A DNA stretch of 64,000 bases from Acutalibacteraceae bacterium (GTDB taxonomy: Bacteria > Bacillota > Clostridia > Oscillospirales > Acutalibacteraceae): positions 3,705 through 67,704 of the forward strand of contig JAZNMK010000009.1 in the NCBI GenBank assembly GCA_045579585.1, given 5' to 3'. The notes under the pieces are model-generated. The model was given only the letters and a program-made list of their open reading frames with translations, was not told the origin of the DNA and made no database searches. This document shows, piece after piece, positions 4,276 to 57,129 of this stretch. The position numbers and the translations under genes are program-made. How positions within the stretch are numbered: position 1 is the stretch's first letter; each line of letters begins with the position of its first letter.

Positions 4276-4299
4276 AATTCTTATGTAAGGAGTGAGAAT

Positions 4300-32676: not shown

Positions 32677-32785
32677 CATAAAAAATCAGCAGGGCGGAGA
32701 ACGTGAACAGGTCCAGTAAAAACGGACAATGAAAAAAGGAGCCTCCTATGGTAGAATTAAAGAAACTACCATAGGAGGTTTTGTT

Positions 32786-35109: not shown

Positions 35110-35147
35110 GAAAAAACCTCCGTAATCAATGTTATTCAATCCTGTCC

Positions 35148-35175
35148 ATTATACAGTATCGTGTGTGCGTTGTAA
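35148..35175 (-). promoter_or_regulatory. extended -10 promoter for comEB
   Basis: Minus strand: TTACAA (35175-35170), 16 nt, TG-TATAAT (35155-35148). Confidence 0.45.
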
Positions 35176-35696
35176 ATAAAAACGGTATATTTTTTGAGGT
35201 GAATCGGATTAAAAATGTGATATAATGCAGCGAAATATCGAAAACAATATGGTAAATTAGAATTAAATTGTAAACATTCTGTAAACTTTTTCGATTTTTC
35301 GGAAGAAAAACAGCAGAAAAAATGCATTTTTTGAGGAGAAAAAAGCATAAAAACGGGGTGGAATCGTGGCGTTTTTTTGGGTGAGTGGAGAGACGTGTGA
35401 CCAAAGTGAAGGAGAGTAAAAAAGCGGTGTGAAAGGTAAATTTTTCTGCAGAAAAAACATTGTGATGAATGTGGAAAATTTCAACGGAAAAACAGCAACG
35501 TTTTTTGCAAAGAAATGGTTGTAAATGGCTTAAAATCAACGCTTATCGGCATTTAGGAGAGTAGCGGAATCGGTGGCGAAAAGAGCGAAAAAAAGTGAAA
35601 AGCGCCTGTTTGTGCATTGCATACAGTTGAGGGGCTGTTTATTTCGTCAAGATGCACAAAGTTATGACTGAGCAGAGTGATTTTATGCGGAAAATG

Positions 35697-35725
35697 TTGA
35701 CACAAAAACAAAAAATTGCTATAGT
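35697..35725 (+). promoter_or_regulatory. near-consensus sigma-70 promoter driving the giant gene
   Basis: TTGACA (35697-35702), 17-nt spacer, TATAGT (35720-35725). It is the only strong plus-strand promoter match upstream of 36287. Confidence 0.6.
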
Positions 35726-35731
35726 AAATGC

Positions 35732-36286
35732 GTATCAGTATATATATTACTAAGTCTTGTATGCTGTCAAGCCCCGATACACAATATGTTGATTTTGCCG
35801 AATTTCGTACGAGCTGCGAATTACGGTACGGTCGGCAGATTGAGGGCTGCGGCAGTGCAAAAAGCAACCCGACGAGGGTCAGGCGGAGGGTTGTGGGAGC
35901 AAATGCAAGGCAAAAAGCTTCGCTGCACAAGGTGCGGTTGCCGGCGGTCAGGCCGGCAAAGGCGCTGCGGCTGTTTTTCCGGTGGCGGCAGCGGCGAAGT
36001 TTCTCGTAGGGGATGGGTCTCCCGTCCCGAGCGGACGATATTTTCAATCGGAGCGGGGGACGTGTCCCCTACTCGCAACCGGTTAGGTTGCAGCACCCTT
36101 GCGGTGCGTTGAGCAAAAACACTTTTGCGGTTTATGCCGCATTTACCGTCCCTGCGAAATTCAACCGGAGTTTTATCGCAACCCTTTTGTCGGGCTTTAT
36201 GCCCGGCAGCCCATTCGGTCAGAGTGGGTTCGCAGTCCCTTGCGGATTGCAAAAGTCCAAACTATTCTCAAGGAGGAAATTCGATT
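35732..36286 (+). promoter_or_regulatory. ~555-nt structured 5' leader of the giant gene (unclassified RNA element)
   Basis: GC-rich block 35800-36260 in an otherwise AT-rich spacer. Nested hairpin 36006-36072: GTAGGGGA/TCCCCTAC, then GTCTCCCG/CGGGGGAC with a G-U pair. Further hairpins at 36075-36091, 36093-36107, 36126-36141, 36189-36207 and 36232-36250. No credible ORF. Confidence 0.5.
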
Positions 36287-39200
36287 ATGAGAATAACGAA
36301 GAAAATCATCTCATTGCTTCTCGTAGTTTCGATGATGGCATCGTTCTTTGCTATGACCGGCTTTGTGGCGAGTGCAAGTCTGCAGAATCAGCAAGTGACA
36401 GACTTTGGCATTCATTTTGACGACACAACGCGTAAGCTCAAAGTGCTTCAGCTGCCCGATATTCAGACATCGGTCAGCGGCGGCTCTATCACCGAGCGTA
36501 CGAGAGAGACTATCCGCTTGCTGATGCAGCGCTACAACCCCGACGTTATCCTGCTTACAGGTGACCAGACTCAGGGCGGCAGCAGCTCTACAAAGTCACA
36601 GTGGGAGAGTGCAATTAACAGAGTTTACAACACATTTTCTCCGTACATGAAATCCACCTGTAAGGTTATCGCAATGCCCGGTAACCATGAGTACGATTTC
36701 GGCTCACTCAACCACCAGTGGGAGTACCAGATGGACAGATATGCATACTTTGTCGACTGGGATAACAACTTCAGCACCATCGACCTTGACGGTGCACCCG
36801 GTGCAGGTAACGTTACAGTCAGCGCAAGCTCAACAAACAAAGCTGTTGCGCTCAACTTTGCCATCTTCAACTCAAAGGGTGACGATGACGAAGGCTATCT
36901 CCGTCCCGGTGGAGACAACGAGACTGCATACCAGCAGATCGTCAACTGGTATACCAACATGAACAACACCCTTGCAGGCAGCCAGTACAGCTATAAGGCA
37001 CAGAAGACGGGCGCAGCTTCGGCTTACGTTCCCACCTTTGCTGCACAGCACGTTATCCTGCAGGAAATCTACACCACAGGTGCAATTATTGCAGGTGACG
37101 CATCAAACGGTGTTCCCGCAATTGAAAAGTACAGTTCGCTTAACCAGGGTAAGGCTTATCTCCGCCTTGATCCTGACAACAATCCCGGCGGTGCGATGAA
37201 CGAGGCTCCCTGTCCGTCAACACTCGGTGCAGGCAGCACGGCTGCGCTCTACAATGCGCTCCTCACTCCCGGTAACCTTCTCGGTATGACCTTTGGTCAT
37301 GACCATAACAACTATTTCGACGTTGTTGACGATAACGGCTTCCACTTCTATATGGGTGGTGCTCTTACACAGGAGAACTACAACGACGACCAGAACCCCA
37401 AGGGTCGTTATTTTGAGTTCACACTTAACGACACAACAGGTGACGTTGACGTTACTTCAGAGGTTAGGAGCTACACTCAGCTCTCTGTTACAAGCTCCGC
37501 AGACGTTACATCCGACCGTGTTGAGGTCATCAACGGTGACGGTGCTCAGCTTGTCAACACACTCTCTGTTCCCAAGACTGTTTACATCGGTGCAGCGGAG
37601 AACCTTGCAGACGTTCGTGCAAAGCAGGAATTCGGTAATGTTGTACAGACCCAGCTTCTTGACTATAAGACCAAAACGCCATACGACCAAGACCTTTCGG
37701 TCAACTACTGTCTGCCCGCAGACGCAACGGATATCGTGTTCAGCGCTCACAGAACAATCGGTAACGCTCAGGCAACGCTCACAAACCTCGGCACCGAAAC
37801 AACAAGCGAGGGCGTGCTCTATAAGTACGCCATCAAGGGCGAGAGCGTGCTTACTGCAGGCGAGTACATCAACTACAGCGTAAGATATAAATACAACGGT
37901 GTTCAGTACGAAATCCGTAACAGCACAGTTGTTGAGAATATCAAGCAGCCCGCAGGTTACAACGATTGGTTCCGCGGCTTCCGTGAAAGCAACAACTCCA
38001 AGCACTATGTTGACCTTGCTTATATTGCTACGCTTTCCGGCCCCGGTGCATACAGCGTATCGCGTGAAACATCGCAGAACAGCGGTGAGTTCAACTCCAA
38101 CACCTACTTTAACTACTCTCTTATGATTGCCGACGTTGACCAGTCATGGTACAACAAGGCGGGCGACACACGCTTCAGCATGTTCCGCTTCAGCCCCAGC
38201 CGTAGAGAAGTTACGGAGGGTTTGGTTTCACAGCGTGCAATCTACGCTCCTCCCAGAACAGATATCTACCTTGACGCTTCAGCAATGCCGAAGGTTTCCG
38301 CAACTGATACCAGACTTGACACAGGCGTCAGCATCGATTTCTGGATTCAGAAGGACCTTGACCGTGGCTTTTCAGAGACCATTGCCGGTATCGGCTTCTA
38401 TCCCGGCGATCAGGACTTTAATCCCTCCGGCGCAACCATCGACTGGGACAGAAACGTCAGATACAGCAGCTACAATGCAGCTGTTACCGCAGAAAACAAC
38501 TCAACCGGTAGCGGCGGTACAATCGACGAAGCAAAAATCTTCTTCTATGAGACGTTTGCTCACGAGGAGAGCCTTTACGGCCTCGGCACAACACACGTCA
38601 ACGGCAACTACCTGCCCGACAATAAGCTCGGTAATATGGCAGGTCAGTACAAGGGTTATCCCCTTGTTGTTGACAGCAAGGATGCAGTTCTTGCCCTCAA
38701 CGGCAAGGATATGACAATGTTCACAGGTGTGCGTAATAAGGGTAGCTCCGACGGCGGTTACCGAATCCTTCTCTATGCGGTAGCTCCGTACTACCTCAAC
38801 TTCCACACCTACGATAAGGGCGCGCTCCGTGAGCTCACAATGGCTGAACTCATGAACCCCCGTAAACAGAGCGATTACCCCAATGCTACACAGCAGATGT
38901 GGGACGCTTATATGTCTGCTTACCAGAATGCTCTTACCTGCTACGTACAGAATCAGACAACGCAGACAGATGTTGACAACTTCAATACAGCCCTTAATAG
39001 CGCTATTGCAGCCCTGCTTAACTCCAACAAGGGTAAGCCCGACGAGAGCAACCTCCTTAAGGGCACAAGCCAGTTTGAATCAATTGATATTCCGCCTATC
39101 ATTTATGTAAGCAGCGACTCAAAAATCCAGACTGCTGCTCCCTACACAGACCGTGTTATCAAGTTTGACGTTCCCTCGGGCGCAACAAACGTAAGCTGTG

Positions 39201-42200
39201 TAGTTGTTAACGCAGGCAACGATAACGTTAACTCTGCTGTTACGCTTTCACCCGCTTCGGGCAACGGCAACAGCACGCATTATGAGTATACTGTTTCCGA
39301 CGGCACTGTATCAGCAGGCGGCAGCATTTATTATAAACTTTCATATACTCTTCCGCAGGACCTTAACAAGGACGGCAAGAACGATACATACACTCAGTAT
39401 GCCGCATCCTATGTAAAGGGTGTTCCGAATACGGAAGGTGTATGGATTAACCAAACCAGACGAAGCAGATCCGTTCTTTCTAGAGACACGAGAGTCAGTG
39501 CAAGAGTTACTTTGAGCATGGATAGCAATATTTTTAGTTCAAGAGGCGTATCGGGCATTATGGCTCTTTACGGCGGTGTTCAGGGTACATCCTTCCACAC
39601 AACCGTTGTAAACGGCTCAACCAACGATTATACAAGACATAGTGGTAGTGCTGTTAACTGGGCTGTAGGAACTAACGAATGGAAAGGTGATGGTAACGGA
39701 TCCGGTTATACAGCTGCTGGTAGAGTTTTGTTCTACAACAGAAGAGGTCACGTTAAGTTTAATTCCGGACAACCGTACTTTAACGGTCTATATAATTATT
39801 CGACCGACAGTACAATTAATACCGGTGGTAATAATTCAGATGAATATGTTGTTGCCCATCTTTATTTTGATCCGCAGGCTACAGGTGCAAGTGTAGCCCC
39901 AAGGTTTAAGCTTTCGATTACAACCCATAATGCCGGTGAATCAGATACACCGACAATCTATAAATATTGGGATGCTAATGCTTATTCCGGTGTTAACTAC
40001 AGCGGTGACTATGTAAGTAAATCGCCGAATGTTTCTTCGTCCGGTATGTTTACTCAATCGGCAACAGGTAGTAATAGCTCGTGGGCATCTGACGGCACTA
40101 TCTCTCTTGGAGACAATGCGGTATATGAAACATATCTAAATACTAACAAGTCTCTGTCAGGATTTACAAATTCAGCTACATATTCCAGACTTATTATTCA
40201 TGCCGAAAAGAAAGATAGTAATGAATACAATAATGCGCTTATGGGTTTTGGCTTTGTAATCAACCGAGTTGACAGAAGCCAGGCTCACCAGGCAATCAAA
40301 TGGGCTACAGGTCAGGAGCTTGTTGAGCCCTCCGCACTCTTTAATGAGGACGAGATGGACCCCGAATGGTGGTCACAGTGGCGTGGCGAGATAATGAAGG
40401 CTTACACAAAGTGCGGTAACCTTTGGGAAACTACCGACTTTGATACGTCGCTACTTATCAACCTCTGGCAGAACCCTGTTTACAAGGATGCTGACTACTC
40501 ACAGCTTGTAAGCACACTTAAGGATATCGCGGGCGATGCAGTTGAAAACGAAAGCATCCCCGATTTCGATGCGATTACGTTTGCTATTTCACAGTTTGAT
40601 GACCAGCGTTATCAGGGACAGAGATACGCAAGGGATATGTTCGTTAACAACGCAACAGACCTTATCAACGTAATCAAAAACAGAACTACTGTTTACGGTG
40701 AAGTAGACTCAAACGGTATTGCTGCAAGCGACTCTGCAGGCAACCTTCACGATTCTCACCTTGACGTTCGCTTCCAGAAGTATATCGACGATTATGCTAC
40801 TGATCTTCAGGAGGCTTGGGAAAGACTCCGTCTTGCTCCGGCAGATTATACTGCTTTTAATAAGTATGCAAATTATTATAATGAAACAGACGATACCATT
40901 CTCTTTATGCGTGACGAATATGCAGGCTACAACAACGACGGCACTGCAAAGAACTACGCAAATGAGAAGGCTCTTGCAAGCGGTGTATACACCTATACTA
41001 CATATATTGCTTTCAAGAATTCACTCAACATTGACCCAACCCTCAAAAAGCCCAGTGAGACTGCGGTTATCGGCTCACTGCCCAGGCTCTATCCGCAGAC
41101 ATTCACTTATAAGAACGTAGCATTACCCGATGTTCCGGACACTACAGTTTGTCTCTACAACACAGCCCGTGATGCATACGAGGCACTTGAATTCAGACGT
41201 GCAGGTGAGTATTACTCTGCTGACGGTTCATACACCGAGGGCGGCATAACCTACTATGCTGATTACAACAAGCAGGACCGTGGCGCAAACTATGTTTACA
41301 CACCTGTATTCAGAACAAGCTACAATTCGCTTACAGCTGATATTAAAGATGCAGGTTTCGTTGTTACAGATAATAAGGTAAAAGTAACCTATAATAACGG
41401 CAACAACGGCGATATCGACGGAGACGGTCAGCCGGATGCTAACGAAATCTGGGTGCTCAAAGGTGACCGCAGCCCCTTAAAGCCTATCAACCCCTGGACT
41501 GATGCTTCATGGGGCGGCGCAAGCTATGGCTTCAGTGATGCTTATAAGGAGCACATCCTCAACGAAACAAGCACCTATAAGTCAACAAATGAAAGCTCCA
41601 AGTGGGTTCTTGCCCTCTTTGTAGAGGCTGAGATTCTTACTGACATCGCTACTGTTGACTATTACTATGACAAGCTCGTTCCCTCATCATACGATCTTGG
41701 ACAGTACAACTATCAGAAGGACGAGGTTTTCGCACCTTACGAGTTGGGAGGCGGAAGCTATAATGCTGCTATGGCTCTGCTCGCAAACAACGGTTACGTT
41801 CCTTGCGATGCACAGGGCAACCCGATTACAGGCGGTGCAGTATGGTACGAAGCTGCCTCATGGAGCGAGTACCAGGCTTCAAAGGAGATACTGCCCAACA
41901 TTATCGACGGTGCAACCCTTAAGGAAAACCAGGATGCTATCAACTATGCTACCGGTGTTATCTATCAGAAGAGAGAAGAGCTCCAGCATAAACTTATAAC
42001 AGAGTTTATGGTTAAAGATAGTGAGGGTAACATTAAGACGTTTGATTCCATCCTCGCAGACCTGAATGCAAAACGCGCAGAAATTCAGGGCGTACAGGTT
42101 GACGTATTCGGTCTCAGAGGTAACGAAGATAACGTTGTAACACCCAAAACATATGCCGATGCTACACAGAACGGCGCAACCCAGGGCCCGCTCTTTGTTA

Positions 42201-45200
42201 AGCATAACTATTATAACGACGACTATATAGATAATCTCATCGGCAAAATAACAGTTGTCAACTCATTTGCAGATAAAGATGCTGAAGGTAAAGATAAGAC
42301 ACTTGCTGGTTATCTTGAACAGTATCTCACTGCTGTAAATGATTTCACAAAACTTTATAATGATCGTGCTAATCCGGCATATGTTAACAAGGCTAATACT
42401 TATTACCTTGAAATACTCCTTAACAAAGATTGGATTCCGCCTTACGATAAGTACGGCACAGAGAACGCAAAGCCCACCGGCGGTTGGTTCCTCGGTGAGG
42501 AATTCGACGGTTCAAGCTGGTACACAGAGGAAAGCTGGGAAGAGTACGTTACAGCAAGAAACAACGCAGTCAGCTTCTTCGGCGAACCCGGTGCAACTCA
42601 GGGCGCAACGGCCTTCGACGGCTACAAAGTTTTCACCGGCACCTATTACGGCACAGCCAGCCAGCCCGTGCTTGGTCAGTACACCGTTCTTAATCAGGGC
42701 GCTAAGTTCAACATTGACCTTGATCCCGCATCACCGACATACGGTAAGCCTATTGCTGTGGACGGTTCCGATCTTACAGGCTCTGTAAATAAGGCTACTT
42801 ACGATCTCGTTGTTGCTTACTATAAGCTCACCTTTAAGAAGGTTAGCGATTTCGACGGCACAATCGAAGGCGTACCGGGTACAGGCTACAACGGTATCAT
42901 CACAGAACTTAACGGATTGATCAGTGAAAAGGAAAATGCAAAGGTTGACGTTGTTATCCTCAACGCTAACGGTGAACTTGAAATTGTTCAGAGGTCTATC
43001 TACGGTGATGAAGCTATCGCTGCTGTAAAGGATCTGGCAGCTAAGATTGCAGCTCTTGCAAATGAAGACCTCGGTCCTAAGTATCTGGAATACGTTGAAA
43101 AAGTAAACGCTTGCAAGAAGGCTATTGATGAGCTTAAAGAGGTTCCCGTTTACCTTGACGGTTGGAACGCTATCTTCGCTCACCTCAATGAAAACGCAGG
43201 TGATGTAGCTACAATCTCTGAGTCCGGTAATATGACAGCTTACTTCAATGCTGTTTATGACGGCTTCAACCCCGATGGTATTTATGCTGAGGGTGGTACT
43301 CAGTCCATCAATAATATTTTCACAATGAAGGCATTTGCTGACTCTATGAGCCCCACGGCAAAGTCAGCTCAGGCACAGTATAATGGCTTCGTTACAAACC
43401 TTTATAACGAGCTTAACGCACTTGCTCTCACACCCAAGCAGGTTACGAGTGCAGCTCAGGCTGCTATGGTTAAGCTTTCACAGGCTTCACAGCCTGCTTA
43501 CGACCCGATTCAGCTTAACGGCAGAGCTAAGGTACAGGGTATTTCCAAATTCTCACCCGCATCGGTTACTGCGGCTACAAACCTCGTTACAACAGTAAAC
43601 TCCACAAAGGTAACACTCTGGGATACAAAACCGGCAGTTACAGGTTATAACAACGGTGCAGGCGTAATTGTTGACGGTTCACTCGCTGACGAAATCTGGG
43701 CAGCAGTAGGTCTCGCCAATGCGTCCGGCACGAAGGATTACAACGGTGCAGACCGCGACAACAGATATCTCCTTGTTGAAGGCGGCCAGTTTGTTGATGC
43801 TCTTAACGATGCTATCGCTTATGCTAAGGACGAACTCTATGAGGCAGATGGCGTAACAGTTAAGCAGTTTGAGGTTGTTACAGGCGAAGGCGAAATAATT
43901 TCGGCACCTGTCTTTACTGATGAATCTGTTACGGATCTTGTTAACGCTCTTGCAGCAGCAGTTGTTACAGATACAACAACTCAGGCACAGATTGACCAGT
44001 GGGTATTCGATATCCTCGAAAACACCGATATCGATAACAAAATCCCCCTTCTTGCTGAGGATGGCACGTTCTACGGCACGCTCAACAATACAGCGGAAGA
44101 TGAGGGTCTTAAGTATAAGCCCGCTGACTATACATACCTCGATAAAGAGCTTGGTACCGCATTTACAAGTGAATCTGAAGGTGCTCAGGCAATTATCGAT
44201 ATGATATGGCTTGACAACGGCGACGGTACTTACACACTCGATCCCCAATACGGTAACACAAACGGTGCCAAGTATTTCACATCAGAAACATGGACACCTT
44301 ACTACACCAATTATTCAAATGCTCTTAACACGAACATTGTTCCCAGAGATCTTACAGCTAATGATCAGGATAAGATCAATGCGTATACAACAGGCATTTA
44401 TACCACAAGAAATGAGCTTAAATGGAACGGTGTTGAAGAAAGCGTATGGACACAGATTGATAATGTTGGTAATAAGATCGGTAAACTTGAATCTCAAACC
44501 TTTACTGTATTTACATTCACAAACAGTGAAGTTCAGATTCTTGAAGACGGTACACGTGTTCTTACAGCGCCCACTATAGGTGAAAAGAGTGTTTCCGCTT
44601 ACGGTGACGTTTCTCACATCCTCTCACTTTGGGCTACATTCAATGCCAACTACCTTAAGTCACAGCTTGATATCACAAAGCAGGCAGAGATGCTTGAGAA
44701 GCTGCAGGAAATCAATGATATATACAATTCTCTCGAAACAAAGAGATTTGATACAGATGAGAACAATGAGTTCACAGAAGGTGTAAGAAACCTTGTTGAC
44801 AGCTTTATCGCAGGTACTTACACATTCAACGGATTCTCCTCCAGCGACGGTATCGGCACATATGTTCCCGATTACCAGGCAGTTGCTCAGGGCACAAACG
44901 TTAATGCATATGAACAGCGTGTCCGTGACGAGCAGCGTATCTTTATCCAGAGCAAGCTCAACGCTCTTTACACAATCATCGGCTCCGGTATGGAGGCCGG
45001 CGACGTTTACCTGGATAATGCCAGCGGCGATCGTTATGATACAGCTATGGATGCTGTTAATACAATCGCAACCGAGCTTTATGAGTACCTTACAACAACT
45101 CCCGCTCAGTACGCAGGCTTCGGTCTTGATATGAGACAGGGTATGTACGATTATCTCTCAACCGAGATCGTCGTTGCAGTTGATTACAGATTCGCTGCAA

Positions 45201-48200
45201 CAAAACCGCTCTACACAAAGAGTGTACCGATGTTCACTCCGGAAGCACTCAGCGGTGTAAAGGAAGTACTTGACGGTACAGGTGAAGACGGTAACTTCGG
45301 TGAATTCGGTAATGTTGATAACTGGCCGATGATCAGCCAGCTTGACAGTTCTGTAGGTATCGAGCTCACAGAAAACACAGCGGTTGAACAGCTTACATTC
45401 CAGCGACCCATAGGTTATGATGAGGAGACAGGCGAGACAAGTTACGAAGAAGTATATGTCAACAGCGGCATCCTTTCATTCGTAAACGGCTACTCTTACA
45501 TTTACGGTGATGTTCACGGCGCTGTCAATGGGCACGATACAGTAGCACTTGATTGGCTCGTAAATACAGCAGTTGTCTATGATGATACAGACGTTTACTT
45601 CCTTGCAGATACAAACGGTCCTGTAGACATAAACGGAGACGGTGTGCTCTTCCACTACACAATGGATGCTGGTGTCAATAGAGACGGTGAATGGTACAAC
45701 GAGGGTTACGGTACTGATCTCAACCAGGACGGAACAAGATACTATCTTGCATCAGATCCCGAAAATAGAGTAACAGGCAGTGAATATGGCGGTTGGTTCA
45801 CAAACGCAACATATGAAGCTGTTATGCAGCAGAAGGATGATTCAGCAGCATATATCGATTATGCAGGCTATACCTTCGGTGGCGGTCCTGTTGCAATTCC
45901 CGTCAGAGAGCAAATTGAAAACGAACCCACAGAGTACGGTGTATGCTGGAACGCTGAAAACAGAAATGCATACATCAACGCTATCCAGCAAGACCAGTCT
46001 GATGTTGACGGTGCAGCAGCAGATCTGTATGAAAAGCTCTGCTTGCTCGAACTTCTTCCCGCAACAGATGCGTACAGATATGTTGCAGGCCTCATCTACG
46101 ATGCTCTCGGTCTGGTTCCGCTCTATGAGGATGATGATATTACCGGTATCATTATTGAAGACGGTGACGGTGAACTTGTAGAACATAAAGATGATGAAGG
46201 CAATAAGTTGGGTGGTTATCTGTATAACCTCTCACTTATGGATGACCTTACATCTTACACACCTGTTTATGATGAAGAAGGAAATTATGTTATCGGCTGC
46301 TACTCACAGCAGCTTCCCGATAGCTATTATGATGCTAAGAACGGAAAGAGCGGAGCAGATGCAGTATACGCTATCCGTGATCTGCTTCGTGAAAAGATTA
46401 GTGATGGTGTTGTAACAATAGATCAAGCAGATGCTCTCGTTCTTGCCGATGAAAACAGCGTCAAGTCAGAGATTCTCACAGCGCTTAAGGGCCTCGGCCT
46501 CGGCAAGGCAGATCTCAGCCTCATCACATCTCTTGTAGCGGCATTCCTCTTCAATAGCCCGGGTAATGAAAATGCACTCGGCTCATACGATATTAACGAT
46601 AAGGGCATAGGCAAACAGTTCTTTGATACACACTTTACACTCGGTAAGGGTGGTAATGCAGCTGTATACATAGATGACCCATTAATGAAGCTGGCAACAG
46701 ATAAATATCATGCAAGCGGTTTCTATGATTACACAAATTATACAGATGATTCTATCTTACCTATCATTCAATTCCTTGAAAACAAAGATATCGTCAGTGA
46801 TAAAGTTTCCGCACAAGCATATGACTATGTTGCAATGGGCTTCAATATTGTATTCAATCCTGAAATCGATTCAACGGTTTGCGGCTCTCTTTACGATACA
46901 CCCGCAACACAGCAGGATATGATTGACGGTATCTACAGAGAACTTGTAACGCTTATCAATGCTCTTGAGCTTGATAAGGCCTATACAGTTGATCTCATAA
47001 AACAGATTGATGCTGCTGACGGTATTATGCTTAATGAGGATATTTACGATCACGAGGCGGTAGATACCGGCGGAAATAACATCTGGAACGAGTTCGTTGA
47101 GGCTCGCAAGAACGCTGAAAACTATAAGAATGCTACAGTTATCAACGAGTATCAGGTTGGTCAGGCTAAGGAAAGACTTGAGGTTGCAATAAGAGCACTC
47201 GTGCTTTATGTAGATACTTTTGCTCCCATTGTAACTATTCACAATACACAGACTGATCTGAGCAAGTTCTATGCAGAACATGCAACAGAGCTCAGCAATA
47301 CAATTCATTCTGCCTCCCAGATGGTAACAGCGTCCTATATGGAGCCCGGTCTTGGCGGCTATACACTCTACGTATACACCAACCAGCTCAACCCGCACAT
47401 TGTTGTTTCTCTTAAGGATACAACAAGCGTTCTCAACGGTGACGGTTCTGCAAGAACGGTTACAGCCTCCAAGCCTGAGAAGCTTTCGGTTTCCGCACAG
47501 GCTATGAACGGTGTATCCGCAAACGTCATCACTCCTGTTCTCGATGCAACAACAGGTAGACCCCTCAGCTCTGTTTCTACAAAGCTTACGGGTGCAACAA
47601 CTGTTTCTGCTCAGACAGCAAAAAATGCAGAGGGCACATACGATGCAGATTCATCTGCATATATCATCCTCAATCCCCAGTTCAGTGACGCAGACGGTAC
47701 ACAGCAGGCAGCAGCTTACACAATCGGTGCAACAGACTCTGCTGTTACCAAGGATGCTGCAACAAACGAGATTACCGAAAAAGCAAACGGTGTTGAGAGC
47801 TTCAACTATGCAAACAACCCCGAGCTTATCGAAACAACGTCAAAAGGCAAGATTACAGTATTCGTTTACTATATGAATTCTATGCCTGCTGACGGTTCCG
47901 ACGATGGATTTGCAGCTGACGGTTCAGTTAACGGTTCCGCAATTCTTACATATGCTGAGAACGACGGCCTTGCTGCTGATGAGTGGAACTCAAGATACGG
48001 CCTGCTCAGAAAGTTCAACGGTTCTGTTAAAAATTGGGAATTCAGCGATATCAATAAGGATCTCAACGAAGGTGCTGTTTATGTTGATCCCACATTCGGT
48101 GAGAATAACTTCGGCAGCTTTATCTACAAGCTCGATCCCACTGCGACAAAGGGTCTGGATTACGATATAGCAAAGATTTACTTTGAGCAGGGTGCAGACG

Positions 48201-50239
48201 CTGCAAAGGAAGCTTTCATAAGAGCACTCAACTCAAATGTTGATTACATCACTGCATTCGATGCAGAAAGCCAGAATTCGGCATCAACCAAGTATATTCC
48301 GTTCGGTGCAGGTGAGAACTACAATCAGCATCTCGCATTCATCGACAACGGCACACTCCTGTTTGCTCACGTTGCAGACCGTTTTGGTAACGTATGTAAC
48401 AGAATCATCGAGGTTAAGAATTACGATCAGCTCGCTCCTGAACTCACAGCAGAGGGCACAGGTGCTGTTGCAGTTACAGAGCCCGGCGGTTCAGGCGTAG
48501 CAAAGGTTGACCTGTTCGAGTATATGGGTACTCAGGGTAGCTCGCTCTACATTGATTATCTGTTTGCTAACCTCCACGTTAAGGATTTCACATACGTATC
48601 GCAGGATAACACCTTCACAATCAAGGCAGGCGCTGCAAGCGCAGGCAAGCTCTTTACGGTTGCTGTTACAGATAAGGCAGGCAATGTCGGTTCTGTACCG
48701 GTATACGCTGATGAGAACGGTGATATCGTTGTTACGGTAGTTGAAACATTCGATAACGTTGTTAAGTATGCAGCTGATGATACTAATATCGACGTCAACA
48801 CAGGTGAAGATCTTGATATCATTGAGTTTACGTTCAACAGCAACGAGAGAATTATCCTCAACTACGTTGAACCTTCATCAATCATTAAGGCAGGTCCCGA
48901 CGGTAACGTCTTTGCAGACAAGAAGAACGTACCGCTCAATATCACAACCAAGTCTGAGGTCGAAGCTGTTAAGCTTTACAATGTTGGCACAGGCACAGAG
49001 GAAATCTGGACTGTTGATAATGCAACCGTTAAAGACAACGGCGACGGCACAAAGACATGGACAGTTAAGTATAAGTTCACAGAGGGTGAACACAACTATA
49101 TCGCAACCGCAAAGGTAAACGGCGACTGGGAGACATTCGGTGTTGACTTCAGCTTCACAGCTACAACAAAGAGCATCACAGTCAAGCTTATGGTTTCCGG
49201 TATAGGTAAGATCAGATTCGGTTACAACGAAGGCAACTACTCCAACGTTCCTGTTATGTCTCAGAAGACTGTTCCCTATGGTTCAGTTGTTACTCTTGAG
49301 GCTACTCAGACTGAGGAAGGCTCTGACTTCTACTACTGGATCAATAACAGCTCCAACAGAATCATCAGTGCAGCAACGACTTATGAATTCACAGCTGTTA
49401 CAAATATGGATCTTACAACTCAGTTCACTACTAACGAATGCTTCACAAACGATAAGAGACTTGTAGTTTATGTAAATAACGCTGAAAACGTTGTCGAAAA
49501 CTTTGAGCTTGCTGAAGGCGAGGATTATATGGTTCCCGCTGCTCCTTCACTTCCTGACCATGTCTTCAAGAGCTGGAGCATGACCAAGGAAGAGATCCTT
49601 GCAAGCGATGAAATGATGATAGTCGTAAGACCCGTTTACTCACTTGTTGTTAAAAACACAGTTACCCTCACTGAGGGTAACTGGACAACAACAGGCGCAG
49701 GCGTATATGAGTCTGTTGATAACGAGAGAGCTGTTGTTACCGTAAGCGCTTCTGCTGCAGATGACGCAGGTGCAAGCTTCCTCTACTGGTTTGATGCCGA
49801 AACAGGCGATATCGCTTCATATAACAGAACTTATAGCTTCCACGCTATTAAAGATACTGAGCTTACACCCGTTTACGGTGATGCTTCAGCTGTTACTCCC
49901 GCTCCTGTTGCCAGAATTTCAACAATCAAGTATGACTCAAGCTCAAAGAAGGTTAACTTCTATGCAGAACGTTCGATTCCTGCCGATTATGATCTTATCC
50001 AGACCGGCGTTATCGTAACAAAGACAGCTTCTGTCGGCAATGATGCACAGGCATTCATCCTCGATGCAGCAGGTGTTGGCAAGGGCGTGTCAAAGAGCAC
50101 TGCAGCTAACGGTTTCTATACAGGTGCTGTTGCAGCAACTGCAGGTACAACCGTTTATGCAAGAGCATATGTCATTTACATGAACGCAGACGGTGATATA
50201 ATCACCTCCTACAGCCCGATCTCTTCATACACTGTATAA
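36287..50239 (+). CDS. giant secreted multidomain protein (4650 aa): signal peptide, metallophosphoesterase domain, FIVAR-like helical modules, Ig/InlB-B-repeat-like C-terminal modules
   Basis: Uninterrupted 13,953-nt ORF. ATG 36287 follows AGGAGG (36271-36276) and gives the signal peptide MRITKKIISLLLVVSMMASFFAMTGFVASA/S. MPP motifs: LPDIQ, LLTGDQTQGG, MPGNHEYD, FGHDHNN. Recurrent W..Y.....A......Q.D.D.....L modules. No LPXTG, SLH or choline-binding anchor seen. Confidence 0.9.
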   Translation: MRITKKIISLLLVVSMMASFFAMTGFVASASLQNQQVTDFGIHFDDTTRKLKVLQLPDIQTSVSGGSITERTRETIRLLMQRYNPDVILLTGDQTQGGSSSTKSQWESAINRVYNTFSPYMKSTCKVIAMPGNHEYDFGSLNHQWEYQMDRYAYFVDWDNNFSTIDLDGAPGAGNVTVSASSTNKAVALNFAIFNSKGDDDEGYLRPGGDNETAYQQIVNWYTNMNNTLAGSQYSYKAQKTGAASAYVPTFAAQHVILQEIYTTGAIIAGDASNGVPAIEKYSSLNQGKAYLRLDPDNNPGGAMNEAPCPSTLGAGSTAALYNALLTPGNLLGMTFGHDHNNYFDVVDDNGFHFYMGGALTQENYNDDQNPKGRYFEFTLNDTTGDVDVTSEVRSYTQLSVTSSADVTSDRVEVINGDGAQLVNTLSVPKTVYIGAAENLADVRAKQEFGNVVQTQLLDYKTKTPYDQDLSVNYCLPADATDIVFSAHRTIGNAQATLTNLGTETTSEGVLYKYAIKGESVLTAGEYINYSVRYKYNGVQYEIRNSTVVENIKQPAGYNDWFRGFRESNNSKHYVDLAYIATLSGPGAYSVSRETSQNSGEFNSNTYFNYSLMIADVDQSWYNKAGDTRFSMFRFSPSRREVTEGLVSQRAIYAPPRTDIYLDASAMPKVSATDTRLDTGVSIDFWIQKDLDRGFSETIAGIGFYPGDQDFNPSGATIDWDRNVRYSSYNAAVTAENNSTGSGGTIDEAKIFFYETFAHEESLYGLGTTHVNGNYLPDNKLGNMAGQYKGYPLVVDSKDAVLALNGKDMTMFTGVRNKGSSDGGYRILLYAVAPYYLNFHTYDKGALRELTMAELMNPRKQSDYPNATQQMWDAYMSAYQNALTCYVQNQTTQTDVDNFNTALNSAIAALLNSNKGKPDESNLLKGTSQFESIDIPPIIYVSSDSKIQTAAPYTDRVIKFDVPSGATNVSCVVVNAGNDNVNSAVTLSPASGNGNSTHYEYTVSDGTVSAGGSIYYKLSYTLPQDLNKDGKNDTYTQYAASYVKGVPNTEGVWINQTRRSRSVLSRDTRVSARVTLSMDSNIFSSRGVSGIMALYGGVQGTSFHTTVVNGSTNDYTRHSGSAVNWAVGTNEWKGDGNGSGYTAAGRVLFYNRRGHVKFNSGQPYFNGLYNYSTDSTINTGGNNSDEYVVAHLYFDPQATGASVAPRFKLSITTHNAGESDTPTIYKYWDANAYSGVNYSGDYVSKSPNVSSSGMFTQSATGSNSSWASDGTISLGDNAVYETYLNTNKSLSGFTNSATYSRLIIHAEKKDSNEYNNALMGFGFVINRVDRSQAHQAIKWATGQELVEPSALFNEDEMDPEWWSQWRGEIMKAYTKCGNLWETTDFDTSLLINLWQNPVYKDADYSQLVSTLKDIAGDAVENESIPDFDAITFAISQFDDQRYQGQRYARDMFVNNATDLINVIKNRTTVYGEVDSNGIAASDSAGNLHDSHLDVRFQKYIDDYATDLQEAWERLRLAPADYTAFNKYANYYNETDDTILFMRDEYAGYNNDGTAKNYANEKALASGVYTYTTYIAFKNSLNIDPTLKKPSETAVIGSLPRLYPQTFTYKNVALPDVPDTTVCLYNTARDAYEALEFRRAGEYYSADGSYTEGGITYYADYNKQDRGANYVYTPVFRTSYNSLTADIKDAGFVVTDNKVKVTYNNGNNGDIDGDGQPDANEIWVLKGDRSPLKPINPWTDASWGGASYGFSDAYKEHILNETSTYKSTNESSKWVLALFVEAEILTDIATVDYYYDKLVPSSYDLGQYNYQKDEVFAPYELGGGSYNAAMALLANNGYVPCDAQGNPITGGAVWYEAASWSEYQASKEILPNIIDGATLKENQDAINYATGVIYQKREELQHKLITEFMVKDSEGNIKTFDSILADLNAKRAEIQGVQVDVFGLRGNEDNVVTPKTYADATQNGATQGPLFVKHNYYNDDYIDNLIGKITVVNSFADKDAEGKDKTLAGYLEQYLTAVNDFTKLYNDRANPAYVNKANTYYLEILLNKDWIPPYDKYGTENAKPTGGWFLGEEFDGSSWYTEESWEEYVTARNNAVSFFGEPGATQGATAFDGYKVFTGTYYGTASQPVLGQYTVLNQGAKFNIDLDPASPTYGKPIAVDGSDLTGSVNKATYDLVVAYYKLTFKKVSDFDGTIEGVPGTGYNGIITELNGLISEKENAKVDVVILNANGELEIVQRSIYGDEAIAAVKDLAAKIAALANEDLGPKYLEYVEKVNACKKAIDELKEVPVYLDGWNAIFAHLNENAGDVATISESGNMTAYFNAVYDGFNPDGIYAEGGTQSINNIFTMKAFADSMSPTAKSAQAQYNGFVTNLYNELNALALTPKQVTSAAQAAMVKLSQASQPAYDPIQLNGRAKVQGISKFSPASVTAATNLVTTVNSTKVTLWDTKPAVTGYNNGAGVIVDGSLADEIWAAVGLANASGTKDYNGADRDNRYLLVEGGQFVDALNDAIAYAKDELYEADGVTVKQFEVVTGEGEIISAPVFTDESVTDLVNALAAAVVTDTTTQAQIDQWVFDILENTDIDNKIPLLAEDGTFYGTLNNTAEDEGLKYKPADYTYLDKELGTAFTSESEGAQAIIDMIWLDNGDGTYTLDPQYGNTNGAKYFTSETWTPYYTNYSNALNTNIVPRDLTANDQDKINAYTTGIYTTRNELKWNGVEESVWTQIDNVGNKIGKLESQTFTVFTFTNSEVQILEDGTRVLTAPTIGEKSVSAYGDVSHILSLWATFNANYLKSQLDITKQAEMLEKLQEINDIYNSLETKRFDTDENNEFTEGVRNLVDSFIAGTYTFNGFSSSDGIGTYVPDYQAVAQGTNVNAYEQRVRDEQRIFIQSKLNALYTIIGSGMEAGDVYLDNASGDRYDTAMDAVNTIATELYEYLTTTPAQYAGFGLDMRQGMYDYLSTEIVVAVDYRFAATKPLYTKSVPMFTPEALSGVKEVLDGTGEDGNFGEFGNVDNWPMISQLDSSVGIELTENTAVEQLTFQRPIGYDEETGETSYEEVYVNSGILSFVNGYSYIYGDVHGAVNGHDTVALDWLVNTAVVYDDTDVYFLADTNGPVDINGDGVLFHYTMDAGVNRDGEWYNEGYGTDLNQDGTRYYLASDPENRVTGSEYGGWFTNATYEAVMQQKDDSAAYIDYAGYTFGGGPVAIPVREQIENEPTEYGVCWNAENRNAYINAIQQDQSDVDGAAADLYEKLCLLELLPATDAYRYVAGLIYDALGLVPLYEDDDITGIIIEDGDGELVEHKDDEGNKLGGYLYNLSLMDDLTSYTPVYDEEGNYVIGCYSQQLPDSYYDAKNGKSGADAVYAIRDLLREKISDGVVTIDQADALVLADENSVKSEILTALKGLGLGKADLSLITSLVAAFLFNSPGNENALGSYDINDKGIGKQFFDTHFTLGKGGNAAVYIDDPLMKLATDKYHASGFYDYTNYTDDSILPIIQFLENKDIVSDKVSAQAYDYVAMGFNIVFNPEIDSTVCGSLYDTPATQQDMIDGIYRELVTLINALELDKAYTVDLIKQIDAADGIMLNEDIYDHEAVDTGGNNIWNEFVEARKNAENYKNATVINEYQVGQAKERLEVAIRALVLYVDTFAPIVTIHNTQTDLSKFYAEHATELSNTIHSASQMVTASYMEPGLGGYTLYVYTNQLNPHIVVSLKDTTSVLNGDGSARTVTASKPEKLSVSAQAMNGVSANVITPVLDATTGRPLSSVSTKLTGATTVSAQTAKNAEGTYDADSSAYIILNPQFSDADGTQQAAAYTIGATDSAVTKDAATNEITEKANGVESFNYANNPELIETTSKGKITVFVYYMNSMPADGSDDGFAADGSVNGSAILTYAENDGLAADEWNSRYGLLRKFNGSVKNWEFSDINKDLNEGAVYVDPTFGENNFGSFIYKLDPTATKGLDYDIAKIYFEQGADAAKEAFIRALNSNVDYITAFDAESQNSASTKYIPFGAGENYNQHLAFIDNGTLLFAHVADRFGNVCNRIIEVKNYDQLAPELTAEGTGAVAVTEPGGSGVAKVDLFEYMGTQGSSLYIDYLFANLHVKDFTYVSQDNTFTIKAGAASAGKLFTVAVTDKAGNVGSVPVYADENGDIVVTVVETFDNVVKYAADDTNIDVNTGEDLDIIEFTFNSNERIILNYVEPSSIIKAGPDGNVFADKKNVPLNITTKSEVEAVKLYNVGTGTEEIWTVDNATVKDNGDGTKTWTVKYKFTEGEHNYIATAKVNGDWETFGVDFSFTATTKSITVKLMVSGIGKIRFGYNEGNYSNVPVMSQKTVPYGSVVTLEATQTEEGSDFYYWINNSSNRIISAATTYEFTAVTNMDLTTQFTTNECFTNDKRLVVYVNNAENVVENFELAEGEDYMVPAAPSLPDHVFKSWSMTKEEILASDEMMIVVRPVYSLVVKNTVTLTEGNWTTTGAGVYESVDNERAVVTVSASAADDAGASFLYWFDAETGDIASYNRTYSFHAIKDTELTPVYGDASAVTPAPVARISTIKYDSSSKKVNFYAERSIPADYDLIQTGVIVTKTASVGNDAQAFILDAAGVGKGVSKSTAANGFYTGAVAATAGTTVYARAYVIYMNADGDIITSYSPISSYTV

Positions 50240-50263
50240 GCGATAAGGCATAAAACAAAAAAA

Positions 50264-50292
50264 CAGCTCACCCGAAAGGGTGGGCTGTTTTT
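50264..50292 (+). terminator. intrinsic terminator of the giant gene
   Basis: CAGCTCACCC / GGGTGGGCTG stem with a GAAA loop (50264-50287), followed by TTTTT. Confidence 0.8.
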
Positions 50293-50309: not shown

Positions 50310-51971
50310 TTGTACGAATTATCATTCTGGGTTAAAATGTTTTACGGTTTTTTCAGGTGGCTTATTTCGTTAATTCTCGGTATTTCTATCGCAACTCCCT
50401 TGCCGGCTTACAATATTGAAGAGCCTGTGGGCGACGTAATGGAAGTTACCGTTATGAGCTTCAACGTTTATATTGCAGGTGCAGGCAAGCAGTCACCGAA
50501 AAACAGAGCCCCCCTTGTTGTTAAAACAATCCGCGGTGAAATGCCCGATTCGTTCGGCCTTCAGGAGGCAGATAAGGCATGGGTTGACCGTATCAGTGAA
50601 GCTATGCCTGAGTACGCCTGGGTAGGCGTCGGCAGGGATGACGGCGCTGAGGGTGGCGAGTTTTCACCCGTATTCTACCTTAAGGATAAATACACTCTTG
50701 TTGACAACGGCACCTTCTGGCTTTCCGAAACACCTGACGTGCCCTCAAAAGGCTGGGATGCTATGTATAAGCGCATCTGCACCTGGGCAATTCTTGAGGA
50801 TAAGGTGAGCGGTGAGCAGTATGCCCACTTCAATGCACATATGGATCATCTCGGCGCCGAGTCACGTGCAAACAGTGCAAAGCTTATAGCGGAAAAAACT
50901 GCCGCACTCAATATTCCTGTTGTTGTAACGGGCGATTTCAATACGGACGAGGGTACTGCACCCTATAACACAATGGTTGCAAACGGATTTATGGATACCA
51001 AGTATGCCGCTGACGATACAATGTCTATGGGCACTTACCATAATTTCGGTATAAATAACGTTACCAAGAAGGGTGCATCTCCTATAGACTTTATTTTCAC
51101 AACCTACGGTTATACGAAGGTAGACAGTTATAAGGTGCTTGGTGATAAGGTGGACGGTCAGTATTCCTCCGACCATTATCCCGTTGTTGCAAAGCTCAGA
51201 TTCAGCAAGGAGCCTGTTGGCGAAGCAGGGCTGAGAATTATGTCTTTCAATCTTCGTTTCAAAGAGCCTCTTAAGCGCCTTCAGGATTTGACAGACGTTA
51301 TCGCTGATGCACATCCCGATATAATCGGCACTCAAGAGGGTACACCCGATTGGATGCATATACTCACAACTGAGTACGCAGGTATATACGGCTACATAGG
51401 TGTTGGCAGAGATGACGGCAAAAACGAAGGTGAGCATTCGGCAATCTTCTACCGCCTTGATAAATATAGTGTAATTGACAGCGGTACTTTCTGGCTTTCA
51501 ACTACTCCCGACGTGCCTTCGCTCGATTGGGATTCGGCATGTAACCGTATTTGTACGTGGGCTGTTTTTGAGTGTAAGGCGGATGGCAAGCAGTTCGCGG
51601 TGCTCAACACTCACCTCGACCACGTAAGCTCACTTGCTCGTGTTAACCAGGTTAAACTTGTAAAAGAGAAGGCGGACAGCTTTGATATTCCCGTTGTTAT
51701 CACGGGCGACTTCAATGCTACCGAAGAAGATCCGGCAATCACAACACTGACGCAGAGTGGATATACGGATAGTCGCTATGCTGCTCCGATTACTGATGAT
51801 TCGGGCACCTACAACGGCTATGAAAAGGGCCGTGACGATTATGAGCGCATCGATTATATCTTCTTCAACTCAGGCTTTGAGGTAACAAAGTACGATGTTG
51901 TTGACGGTATCTTTGCCTCTGACCATTTTGCTATCTATTCTGACCTTCTGTTCCAGGGGGAAGTTAATTGA
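50310..51971 (+). CDS. tandem-domain endonuclease/exonuclease/phosphatase (EEP) family protein with an N-terminal membrane anchor/signal
   Basis: Two homologous halves (about nt 50472-51210 and 51231-51954). Each has SFN, Q/LQE, GRDDG..GE, TFWLS.TPDVPS, H.DH, TGDFN and SDH(Y/F) motifs. TTG start lies 7 nt after GAGGAG. Confidence 0.85.
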   Translation: MYELSFWVKMFYGFFRWLISLILGISIATPLPAYNIEEPVGDVMEVTVMSFNVYIAGAGKQSPKNRAPLVVKTIRGEMPDSFGLQEADKAWVDRISEAMPEYAWVGVGRDDGAEGGEFSPVFYLKDKYTLVDNGTFWLSETPDVPSKGWDAMYKRICTWAILEDKVSGEQYAHFNAHMDHLGAESRANSAKLIAEKTAALNIPVVVTGDFNTDEGTAPYNTMVANGFMDTKYAADDTMSMGTYHNFGINNVTKKGASPIDFIFTTYGYTKVDSYKVLGDKVDGQYSSDHYPVVAKLRFSKEPVGEAGLRIMSFNLRFKEPLKRLQDLTDVIADAHPDIIGTQEGTPDWMHILTTEYAGIYGYIGVGRDDGKNEGEHSAIFYRLDKYSVIDSGTFWLSTTPDVPSLDWDSACNRICTWAVFECKADGKQFAVLNTHLDHVSSLARVNQVKLVKEKADSFDIPVVITGDFNATEEDPAITTLTQSGYTDSRYAAPITDDSGTYNGYEKGRDDYERIDYIFFNSGFEVTKYDVVDGIFASDHFAIYSDLLFQGEVN

Positions 51972-57078: not shown

Positions 57079-57129
57079 AGTTAACACTCCTTATGTATGG
57101 GGATTTTCAATCCCCGTTTGCAAGTCGGG

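Follow-up and report, generated by a model that had tools for sequence, protein, structure and literature searches.

A conserved 14-kb gene of Acutalibacteraceae from rumen and gut predicted to encode a giant secreted metallophosphoesterase-domain protein

An uninterrupted 14-kb gene with colinear orthologues

The 64,000-nucleotide stretch analyzed here, which we refer to as the window (positions 3,705 to 67,704 of contig JAZNMK010000009.1, assembly GCA_045579585.1, from an Acutalibacteraceae bacterium), contains an uninterrupted open reading frame (ORF) of 4650 codons, hereafter the giant gene, whose product of about 500 kDa we call the giant protein (Table 1). The original prediction, made from the nucleotide sequence alone, described it as a single gene for a secreted protein headed by a metallophosphoesterase (MPE) domain, and the essentials of that description hold: the frame is open throughout, a signal peptide can be read at its start, and orthologues are colinear with it. 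Although the longest-ORF listing begins further upstream, at a TTG at 36125, we placed the start at the ATG at 36287, 8 nt after an AGGAGG, because all orthologues agree in this ATG, the ribosome-binding site and the first six codons. The sole variation among orthologues within that segment is an A/T stretch with a 1-nt indel directly after AGGAGGAA. The first six codons (ATG, then AGA ATA ACG AAG AAA) are invariant even at synonymous positions while later codons vary synonymously, which suggests that the translation initiation region is under constraint at the RNA level. The product starts with MRITKKIISLLLVVSMMASFFAMTGFVASA followed by S, and shows the Sec-type signal peptide that had been proposed, with a basic n-region (MRITKK), a hydrophobic core of about 21 residues and an A-x-A cleavage site (ASA, before the S) that is kept in all orthologues. 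This signal peptide lies among the most conserved 40-aa windows of the protein (68% invariant columns), with variation at synonymous sites.

Scanning one genome per GTDB species gave ten orthologous loci, all in metagenome-assembled genomes (MAGs) labelled Acutalibacteraceae, Ruminococcus sp. or Clostridia bacterium, with dairy-cattle colon as the one stated source. The heads encoded at these loci are 56-89% identical to that of the window, and in none of them is the frame interrupted before the fetched DNA runs out, after up to about 3870 codons. Three complete orthologues (4619, 4782 and 4730 aa) are colinear with the giant protein over its whole length, and colinear orthologues were found in at least 13 Acutalibacteraceae/Clostridia assemblies from different studies, the orthologous species being 45-60% identical overall. 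An exact-sequence look-up of the giant protein and of the nearby Maf protein returned no record in the searched collection.

We profiled conservation as invariant columns per 100 aa in a four-way full-length alignment. Conservation is highest in the last ~450 aa of the giant protein (40-58% invariant columns), followed by the head (32-51%), while the middle drops to 5-39%. Along the protein the identities form a mosaic, in which the closest relative changes from L003/L008 to L010 over aa ~1600-2800; there L010 is 83-92% identical and the others 32-80% (down to 32-55% at aa ~1800-2200). This switching of the nearest relative suggests recombination together with fast evolution in the central part of the protein. 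Mosaic stretches were noted at aa 1000-1400, 1800-2200 and 3000-3600 (nt ~39284-40486, 41684-42886 and 45284-47086).

These comparisons leave almost no probability for an assembly artefact, chimera or pseudogene. The only oddity in that direction is a metagenome contig at 2.2x coverage (L012), in which the C-terminal region is split between two called genes; against this, independent assemblies from different studies carry the colinear ORF, three complete orthologues exist, and the pattern of conserved ends with a variable middle implies selection on the protein.

Table 1. Coordinates of the features discussed, in nucleotides of the window unless residues (aa) of the giant protein are given
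Feature	Position	Strand	Details
Giant gene	36287-50239	+	Uninterrupted ORF, 4650 codons plus stop; TAA at 50237-50239
Ribosome-binding site, start codon and first six codons	36268-36304	+	Identical across all species, except a variable A/T stretch
Sec-type signal peptide	36287-36376	+	aa 1-30; A-x-A cleavage site, read from the sequence
MPE head	36419-37486	+	aa ~45-400; Pfam PF00149, motif alignment and AF2 model
Post-head beta module A	37499-38461	+	aa ~405-725; common to the 2000-3200-aa dockerin-type paralogues
FIVAR module 1	38819-39022	+	aa 845-912; Pfam FIVAR and family HMM (E 6e-13)
Variable non-repetitive spacer	39059-47206	+	aa ~925-3640; scattered FIVAR-like modules; no Pfam, NCBIfam or PDB matches
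FIVAR-like modules in spacer	aa 1475-1516, 1848-1906, 2071-2119, 2535-2580, 2653-2718, 3219-3254, 3569-3640	+	Family HMM and hhalign
Conserved C-terminal beta-rich region	47207-50236	+	aa ~3641-4650; conservation profile
Sigma-70-type promoter	35697-35725	+	TTGACA-17-TG-n-TATAGT; 11/12 consensus matches, extended -10
5′ leader	35733-36286	+	About 555 nt; start inferred from promoter
Leader multi-stem domain	35918-35999	+	9-bp closing helix enclosing two hairpins; RNAalifold consensus
Leader hairpin element	36006-36072	+	67 nt, 23-bp stem; sequence almost invariant
Further conserved leader hairpin	36126-36141	+	Locus alignment
Intrinsic terminator	50256-50291	+	10-bp stem, GAAA loop, T-run, flanked by A-run
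Tandem-EEP exported-protein gene	50310-51971	+	553 aa; N-terminal hydrophobic segment; two Pfam Exo_endo_phos domains
182-aa protein gene	34064-34612	-	70-87% identical in all loci; co-oriented with dCMP deaminase gene
IS3-family element	32729-33972		orfA/orfB, rve integrase core; between GH88 and 182-aa gene
GH88	31558-32676		
CapD	25753-27666	-	End of minus-strand ORF run at ~13.8-27.7 kb
GH98 glycoside hydrolase	11892-13832	-	Flanks region
GH20 glycoside hydrolase	55633-57087	-	Flanks region
RNase P RNA, bacterial class A	218-796	-	250 bits

The N-terminal metallophosphoesterase head

For the library scans, Pfam and NCBIfam were searched with 600-aa tiles (E<=0.1), and PADLOC, PHROGs and PDB sequences with the whole protein. 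Pfam Metallophos (PF00149) matches aa 52-169 with 43.8 bits against a cutoff of 21.5 (E 5e-11), a match that holds in the orthologues, and the alignment carries motifs II-V on to GHDH at aa 337-340; both agree with the calcineurin-like MPE that had been placed at nt 36434-37390. The positions D58-I-Q60, G92-D93, G132-N-H-E135, H255 and G337-H-D-H340 are invariant in 12 species. Set beside the MPE motif blocks (D-x-H, G-D, G-N-H-[DE], H and G-H-x-H), blocks II-V are intact and invariant, block I has Gln, and six of the seven canonical metal-ligand positions are invariant in the 12 species. This Gln stands in place of the canonical metal-binding His in 12/12 orthologues and in most of the wider clade. 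The D-x-Q form of motif I is also normal in stand-alone secreted homologues of ~390 aa, which are presumably enzymes, and one family member (P0021) has D-M-E. Purple acid phosphatases (PAPs) likewise lack the motif I His.

An AlphaFold2 (AF2) model of the head, built from a 5-sequence alignment, reached a pTM of 0.72 with a well predicted core, and Foldseek matched it to 33 PDB MPE structures at E<=1e-3, pointing to the alpha/beta sandwich MPE fold. The top PDB folds were purple acid phosphatases, Mre11, Lmo2642 and acid sphingomyelinase (E ~4e-8 to 1e-5), with mammalian type 5 PAPs (PDB 1UTE, 1QFC and 7OV8; E ~5e-8 to 3e-7) as the best fold match, and a sequence profile of the head likewise found a purple acid phosphatase first (E 5e-4). 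Identity to these enzymes is only 12-14%, however, the Tyr ligand of the PAP GDxxY motif is absent (the head has GDQTQGG), and PAPs are small single-domain enzymes, unlike the giant protein. By profile and model, then, we read the head as a distant, PAP-like MPE.

Other assignments found less support. In NCBIfam the head matched only unrelated MPE models (anti-phage phosphoesterases and YaeI), weakly and far below their cutoffs, and the 5′-nucleotidase C-terminal domain (PF02872) was not matched in the tiles or in the orthologues. For anti-phage defence, PADLOC returned 0 families and the NCBIfam DS8 model scored 24 bits against a cutoff of 790; as PADLOC and PHROGs gave nothing, we see no sign of a defence system or phage. 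Wall-anchored MPE nucleotidases and phosphodiesterases of Gram-positives include Staphylococcus aureus AdsA, streptococcal CdnP/NudP/S5nA and Bacillus subtilis YfkN, and the giant protein resembles them as a secreted calcineurin-like MPE that may be displayed at the surface to act on extracellular phosphoesters. Those enzymes, however, combine the MPE with a 5′-nucleotidase C-terminal substrate-binding domain and an LPXTG anchor, neither of which the giant protein has, and in sequence its head is distant from them.

The head is probably catalytically active. Its active site keeps motifs II-V and departs from the canonical form at motif I. An alternative in which the MPE fold serves as a non-catalytic scaffold or binding domain, the whole protein being structural or adhesive, seems to us improbable. 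Inactive MPE folds such as Vps29 and the B-subunits of DNA polymerases are known, and the replacement of the motif I His throughout the clade, together with the D-M-E of P0021, would be in keeping with a further case; yet D58, D93, N133, H134, H255, H338 and H340 are invariant across species only 45-60% identical, whereas pseudo-enzymes usually lose several ligand or catalytic positions. The stand-alone homologues also speak for catalysis, since they consist of a signal peptide and the MPE domain with little else, and have no obvious role besides it.

A long, variable and non-repetitive body

About 85% of the giant protein has no match in Pfam, NCBIfam, PADLOC, PHROGs or PDB sequences. The only elements recognized by the library scans are Metallophos, one FIVAR and one sub-threshold Flg_new, and divergent orthologues add none to this list. 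No meaningful PDB sequence relatives were found with the whole protein, with a full-length profile of four orthologues or with a 10-sequence profile of the post-head module. This post-head beta module recurs once within the protein, as a partial repeat at aa ~930-1020 (aa 469-535 aligned with 955-1021 by hhalign).

The recurring FIVAR-like helical module that had been read from the sequence is real, although divergent and scattered. One copy, at aa ~844-910, exceeds the Pfam threshold of 29.2 bits with a score of 30.8. A family hidden Markov model (HMM), trained on 106 FIVAR-type repeats of the paralogues described below, scored the same module most strongly (Table 1), followed by aa 2653-2713 (E 4e-10) and 3569-3640 (E 3e-6), and also found aa 2071-2107, 2535-2580, 1475-1516 and 3219-3254; with reversed sequences as control, nothing scored better than 0.28. 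In all, the giant protein carries 6-8 FIVAR-like modules by this model, spread over ~2800 residues and not in tandem. The second of the originally proposed examples (aa ~1857-1901) is weak by the family HMM (0.017) and stands by profile comparison, hhalign pairing it with aa 2660-2718 at a probability of 95%. An all-against-all hhalign comparison of 140-aa tiles of the orthologue alignment detected weak internal similarity only, such as that between aa 1898-2026 and 2180-2282.

As had been stated from the letters, the gene has no long exact repeats: Tandem Repeats Finder reported none, direct DNA repeats within the gene are chance-level matches of 24-28 nt, and self-BLASTP of the protein gave one weak pair. 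These properties set it apart from Ebh of S. aureus, a highly repetitive protein with tens of FIVAR-GA units and a C-terminal membrane anchor, and without an MPE domain. The likeness lies in a very large, Sec-exported protein in which FIVAR helical modules may contribute to an extended rod; the giant protein differs in that a single FIVAR passes the threshold, about 6 more being divergent, and in lacking both repeats and an anchor. Ebh-like tandem FIVAR (or FIVAR and GA) arrays are not present in it.

The C-terminal region and relatives with attachment modules

All orthologues share a terminal beta domain of ~115 aa ending in ...YARAYVIYxNADGDI..YS.ISSYT, for which a homologue search with its profile found no other protein. 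Further upstream, the block IDNGTLLF.HVADRFGNVCNR (aa 4019-4039, nt ~48341-48403) is almost invariant in all full-length orthologues and holds one of the only 15 Cys of the protein, in a region with no recognized domain; it could be a functional site. The C-terminal modules show internal similarity (aa 4334-4380 with 4483-4530 by hhalign). The proposal that the end of the protein consists of Ig-like and InlB-B-repeat modules is weakly supported by a Flg_new match at aa ~4309-4358, which is below cutoff (24.0 bits against 27, E 4e-5) and appears as a 'faint' match in one orthologue (P0006); a comparison of these modules with canonical Flg_new repeats by hhalign was negative, with a local HMM iE of 0.76.

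The claim that no LPXTG, SLH, CWB or transmembrane (TM) anchor is present was upheld by pattern, hydrophobicity and domain scans. The C-terminus reads ...SPISSYTV with no LPXTG-like motif, no hydrophobic segment occurs in the giant protein beyond the signal peptide, and SLH, CW_binding_1/2, GW and LysM had no match in the Pfam or NCBIfam tiles. Likewise, the giant protein has no Pfam Dockerin_1, and an HMM built from 12 paralogue dockerins gave a best iE of 0.17 against it and three full-length orthologues. A mid-protein dockerin candidate (DINGDG...DLNQDG, aa ~3115-3145) was rejected on the same value.

The relatives of the head put this C-terminus into context. In an exhaustive HMMER search with aa 1-1200 against 1.84 billion representatives, only 126 matched at E<=1e-3, and these form three groups: the giants, about 100 stand-alone secreted MPEs, and over a dozen proteins of 740-3200 aa, where one cluster member carries the name 'dockerin type I domain-containing protein'. 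Members of 2000-3200 aa (P0011, P0012, P0014-P0017, P0020 and P0027) share the head and the post-head module with the giant protein at ~30% identity over aa 1-720, their stalks are FIVAR-type repeats (Pfam FIVAR reaches 95 bits in P0012), and a two-loop dockerin signature was found by pattern at the end of P0011, P0012, P0015, P0016, P0020 and P0027. In the members of 740-1040 aa (P0021, P0034, P0036 and P0040), the head alone matches, accompanied by Flg_new repeats and a Pfam-confirmed Dockerin_1. Two further arrangements occur: P0028 ends in Big_2 and a TM segment, and another related protein carries Y_phosphatase3 and fn3. A 4022-aa protein (P0019, with 26 matched stretches) was disregarded as an unrelated tandem-repeat protein whose score was inflated by copy number.

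The dockerin-type paralogues come from MAGs of Oscillospiraceae and other Clostridia. Their signal peptide and their MPE head, with its D-x-Q motif, are homologous to those of the giant protein, and in them, too, the enzyme forms the N-terminal end of a long extracellular body, in all cases with FIVAR-type or Flg_new modules downstream of the head. They differ in ending in a type-I dockerin, which the giant protein lacks, and in building their stalks from canonical repetitive FIVAR-type or Flg_new units, whereas its 4200-residue body is non-repetitive and mostly unrecognizable. In the orthologues of the giant protein the body is twice as long and ends in conserved C-terminal beta modules of its own, including the terminal ~115-aa domain. 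In two loci of other Oscillospirales (L016, 1-20962, and L017, 721-11580), dockerin-type MPE paralogues lie within runs of consecutive genes for large proteins (1092-3193 aa), most of which have at least faint FIVAR matches, suggesting loci devoted to long surface proteins.

From these comparisons, an N-terminal MPE, a long extracellular body and a C-terminal attachment module make up a recurrent Oscillospirales layout, and the giant protein is an extreme, dockerin-less variant of an ordinary cellulosome-type or surface-displayed enzyme architecture. The original prediction that it is not a described system was thus overstated, given the head-homologous relatives with FIVAR or Flg_new modules and C-terminal dockerins. 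In the literature we found no paper on MPE+FIVAR or MPE+dockerin proteins and no experimental characterization of family members. A paper on Acutalibacteraceae as protozoal symbionts was set aside, as the clade that it deals with is a different one, whose genomes are small and have a low GC content.

The same relatives bear on a further explanation, namely that the giant protein is a freely released exoprotein whose long body provides solubility, protease resistance or multivalent substrate binding, for example in scavenging particulate phosphate. We regard this as rather unlikely. It would fit with the failure to find any known type of anchor in the giant protein and with closest small homologues that are stand-alone secreted MPEs, but a 4200-residue appendage that is colinear in at least 13 assemblies and most constrained far from the enzyme would need a second binding function, and anchoring modules are present in those family members whose architecture is readable (a dockerin or, in P0028, Big_2 with a TM segment).

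Promoter, leader and terminator

The expectation that the gene has its own promoter, leader and terminator was confirmed, all three being present and conserved in orthologues. Both promoter hexamers are kept in every orthologous locus that reaches that far, and the leader is better conserved than much of the coding sequence (alignment of 11 loci). Compensatory G-C/A-U changes occur within the multi-stem domain (hairpin 35938-35959). The arms of the 67-nt hairpin element are identical in nearly all of 13 species while the apical loop varies; one locus (L007) has a base change and a 1-nt deletion in this element.

Two observations favour a structured sense-strand RNA over a DNA site: the 23-bp stem holds 5 G.U pairs, and the sense strand folds better than the antisense strand, with minimum free energies of -123 kcal/mol (z -6.3) and -97 kcal/mol, a difference of 26 kcal/mol. 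Rfam 15 gave no match at gathering score in the window other than RNase P, with chance-level matches only (E~1-4) in 35100-36400. The element is absent upstream of the paralogues, and a metagenome scan with a 23-mer from the hairpin found no match. We rejected the interpretation of the leader as a small ORF, as species differ by single-base indels that disrupt the frame within the conserved core, and that of a multicopy repeat, as there is one copy in the window and one per orthologous locus. An antitermination need was likewise dismissed, as the number of terminator-like sites in the coding sequence (12) is close to the 11.5 expected. The leader with its 67-nt hairpin is put forward as a candidate new cis-regulatory RNA. 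In three species, GC-rich palindromes (e.g. CTCCCTCAGGGAGGGAG and CCTTTCAAAAGGAGG) are inserted in the leader just past the conserved hairpin, at ~4366-4690 in L001, ~9431-9965 in L006 and ~9764-9975 in L009; they look like small mobile or REP-like elements.

At the other end of the gene, the terminator is kept in 5 loci and includes a T.G to T-A change in the stem.

Chromosomal neighbourhood and the downstream EEP gene

The gene following the terminator begins about 20 nt past the T-run, with TTG as start codon in the window and ATG in L015, and ends in a stop codon that overlaps the maf start. It encodes a putative exported protein with two tandem EEP domains. Domain 1 aligns with PDB 4C1R/3MPR (BT3783) over ~215 residues at E 2e-48. 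During the breakdown of yeast mannan by Bacteroides thetaiotaomicron, BT3783 frees phosphate from phosphorylated sugars and mannan (PMC4978465). Matches of the EEP protein to nuclease models are far below their cutoffs, and a role as a nuclease partner was rejected in favour of a sugar-phosphatase-like assignment; extracellular DNA, proposed as a substrate of the head, thus loses the link that a DNase neighbour would have offered. The resemblance to the BT3783/BT2630 mannose-6-phosphatases of the yeast-mannan polysaccharide utilization loci of B. thetaiotaomicron is that of the neighbour's domain 1 and not of the giant protein, and the neighbour differs from them in its two tandem EEP domains, its Gram-positive host and its position outside any such locus.

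In 3/3 loci where the downstream gene is visible, the EEP gene directly follows the giant gene, as the idea of a conserved linkage had implied, but this is inseparable from the synteny of the whole neighbourhood, and the neighbours of the dockerin-type paralogues that we examined are other FIVAR proteins, not EEP. A possible internal EEP promoter at 50175-50202 (11/12 consensus matches in the window) was discarded, its hexamers not being conserved in orthologues. With no room for a promoter after the terminator, transcription of EEP and maf probably depends partly on terminator read-through.

The conserved gene order runs from CapD (minus strand) through further genes to GT4, GH88, an insert, the 182-aa protein and dCMP deaminase genes (both minus strand), the leader, the giant gene, EEP, Maf, Fur, ZnuA and ABC. 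The rest of the window holds housekeeping genes (rimP-nusA-infB, truB, ribF, mfd, pth, ychF and RNase P RNA); with this setting and the conserved neighbourhood, the locus can be taken as core chromosome. After CapD, GINT1_N-like, ATP-grasp and GT4 genes lie on the plus strand. The gene content suggests a polysaccharide biosynthesis locus beside the giant gene, which lies at the end of this conserved polysaccharide gene cluster. The insert after GH88 is a two-component system in some relatives and the IS3 element in the window; at the IS3 position, L015 and L001 have all or part of a pair of response regulator and histidine kinase genes. The window strain may therefore have lost or displaced a two-component system adjoining the giant gene. 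The 182-aa protein, which has no Pfam or NCBIfam family, always adjoins the upstream region of the giant gene. The RNase P RNA spans 579 nt compared with a 367-position model and appears to carry sizeable insertions.

Discussion

We consider it about an even chance (a probability of roughly 0.5) that the giant protein is a displayed or tethered phosphoesterase carried on a spacer, with its C-terminal module as the attachment end. Expression would proceed from the conserved sigma-70-type promoter through the long structured leader, and the ~500-kDa product would be exported by the Sec pathway, its signal peptide cleaved, as an extracellular protein with three functional zones. At the N-terminus, a binuclear MPE of PAP-like fold would probably hydrolyze a phosphate ester on an extracellular substrate. 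A spacer of ~2700 residues, composed of beta and FIVAR-like helical modules and fast-evolving, recombination-mosaic and non-repetitive, would serve as a stalk. The conserved C-terminal beta block would take the place of the paralogues' type-I dockerin and fasten the protein non-covalently, either to something on the surface of the producing cell or to a particle of substrate, with the MPE acting at the distal end of the stalk. We infer this orientation, head distal and C-terminus proximal, from the dockerin-bearing paralogues and the conservation pattern, and the tethering would follow by the same analogy. As to the substrate, the BT3783-like neighbour and the polysaccharide locus next to it tip the balance slightly from DNA towards a phosphorylated glycan or wall polymer. 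The two genes might form a pair directed at phosphoglycans, in which the head would act as diesterase and the EEP neighbour as monoesterase; this attractive idea fits the adjacent polysaccharide locus and is speculation.

The opposite topology is the less probable arrangement, in our estimate by a good measure. The protein would then be an adhesin whose C-terminal beta modules form the distal tip and bind plant fibre, a microbe, or a host or protozoal surface, while the N-terminus is held by an uncleaved signal anchor or by association of the head with the wall, and the MPE acts on phosphopolymers of the cell's own envelope. Protein-level conservation of the signal peptide in the face of synonymous change is unusual for a cleaved signal and would suit such a function, as would the length of its hydrophobic core; a specific binding tip would be expected to be the most conserved part, which the C-terminal modules are, and the gene is syntenic with a cell-envelope polysaccharide cluster. 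Nevertheless, the canonical A-x-A site is kept in all orthologues, the anchoring of head-homologous paralogues through a C-terminal dockerin implies a distal head, and no adhesin domain was recognizable at the C-terminus, either in the Pfam scan or with the 4-orthologue profile against PDB.

Several observations also weigh against a tethered phosphoesterase as we propose it. Activity of the head is likely and not assured because Gln replaces the motif I His, and we know of no characterized MPE with this variant. The argument for the orientation is an analogy with paralogues that are ~30% identical over the first ~720 aa. At the proposed attachment end there is no recognizable anchor, binding domain or dockerin, the likeness to Flg_new is sub-threshold and unconfirmed by profile-profile comparison, and the AF2 model of the C-terminal 821 aa, from a 3-sequence alignment, is unusable (pLDDT 36). 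Finally, the EEP linkage cannot be separated from general synteny and was not found in paralogues.

The giant protein is distinguished from its relatives by its size, its lack of repeats, its near-invisibility to domain libraries, its C-terminal module and the conserved leader RNA. The last two are the parts most likely to yield something new. We put forward only tentatively, as the less likely outcome, that the leader is a new class of cis-regulatory RNA for a 14-kb gene and that the last ~450 aa are a new module for non-covalent surface attachment or partner binding that stands in for dockerin in this lineage. Possible roles for the leader are a protein- or ligand-binding switch, a processive transcription element or an mRNA stability element, and as a new regulatory RNA it may hold broader interest than the protein.

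Common members of rumen and hindgut communities, the Acutalibacteraceae are almost entirely uncultured. For such an organism a colinear ~500-kDa protein is an expensive commitment, and thus probably serves an important extracellular interaction, with phosphate or phosphoglycan harvesting and contact with particles or partner cells as candidates. With about 3500 residues that have no detectable relatives, and more than 85% of its length invisible to domain and structure libraries, the giant protein is a useful test case for 'dark' giant proteins, and it offers concrete handles in a head that can be assayed and a C-terminal block that can be tested for binding. The architecture of an MPE on a long stalk recurs in Oscillospirales with swappable attachment ends and, if the leader RNA and the C-terminal module prove to be new, the giants would represent a new family of displayed enzymes with a long reach among rumen Firmicutes.

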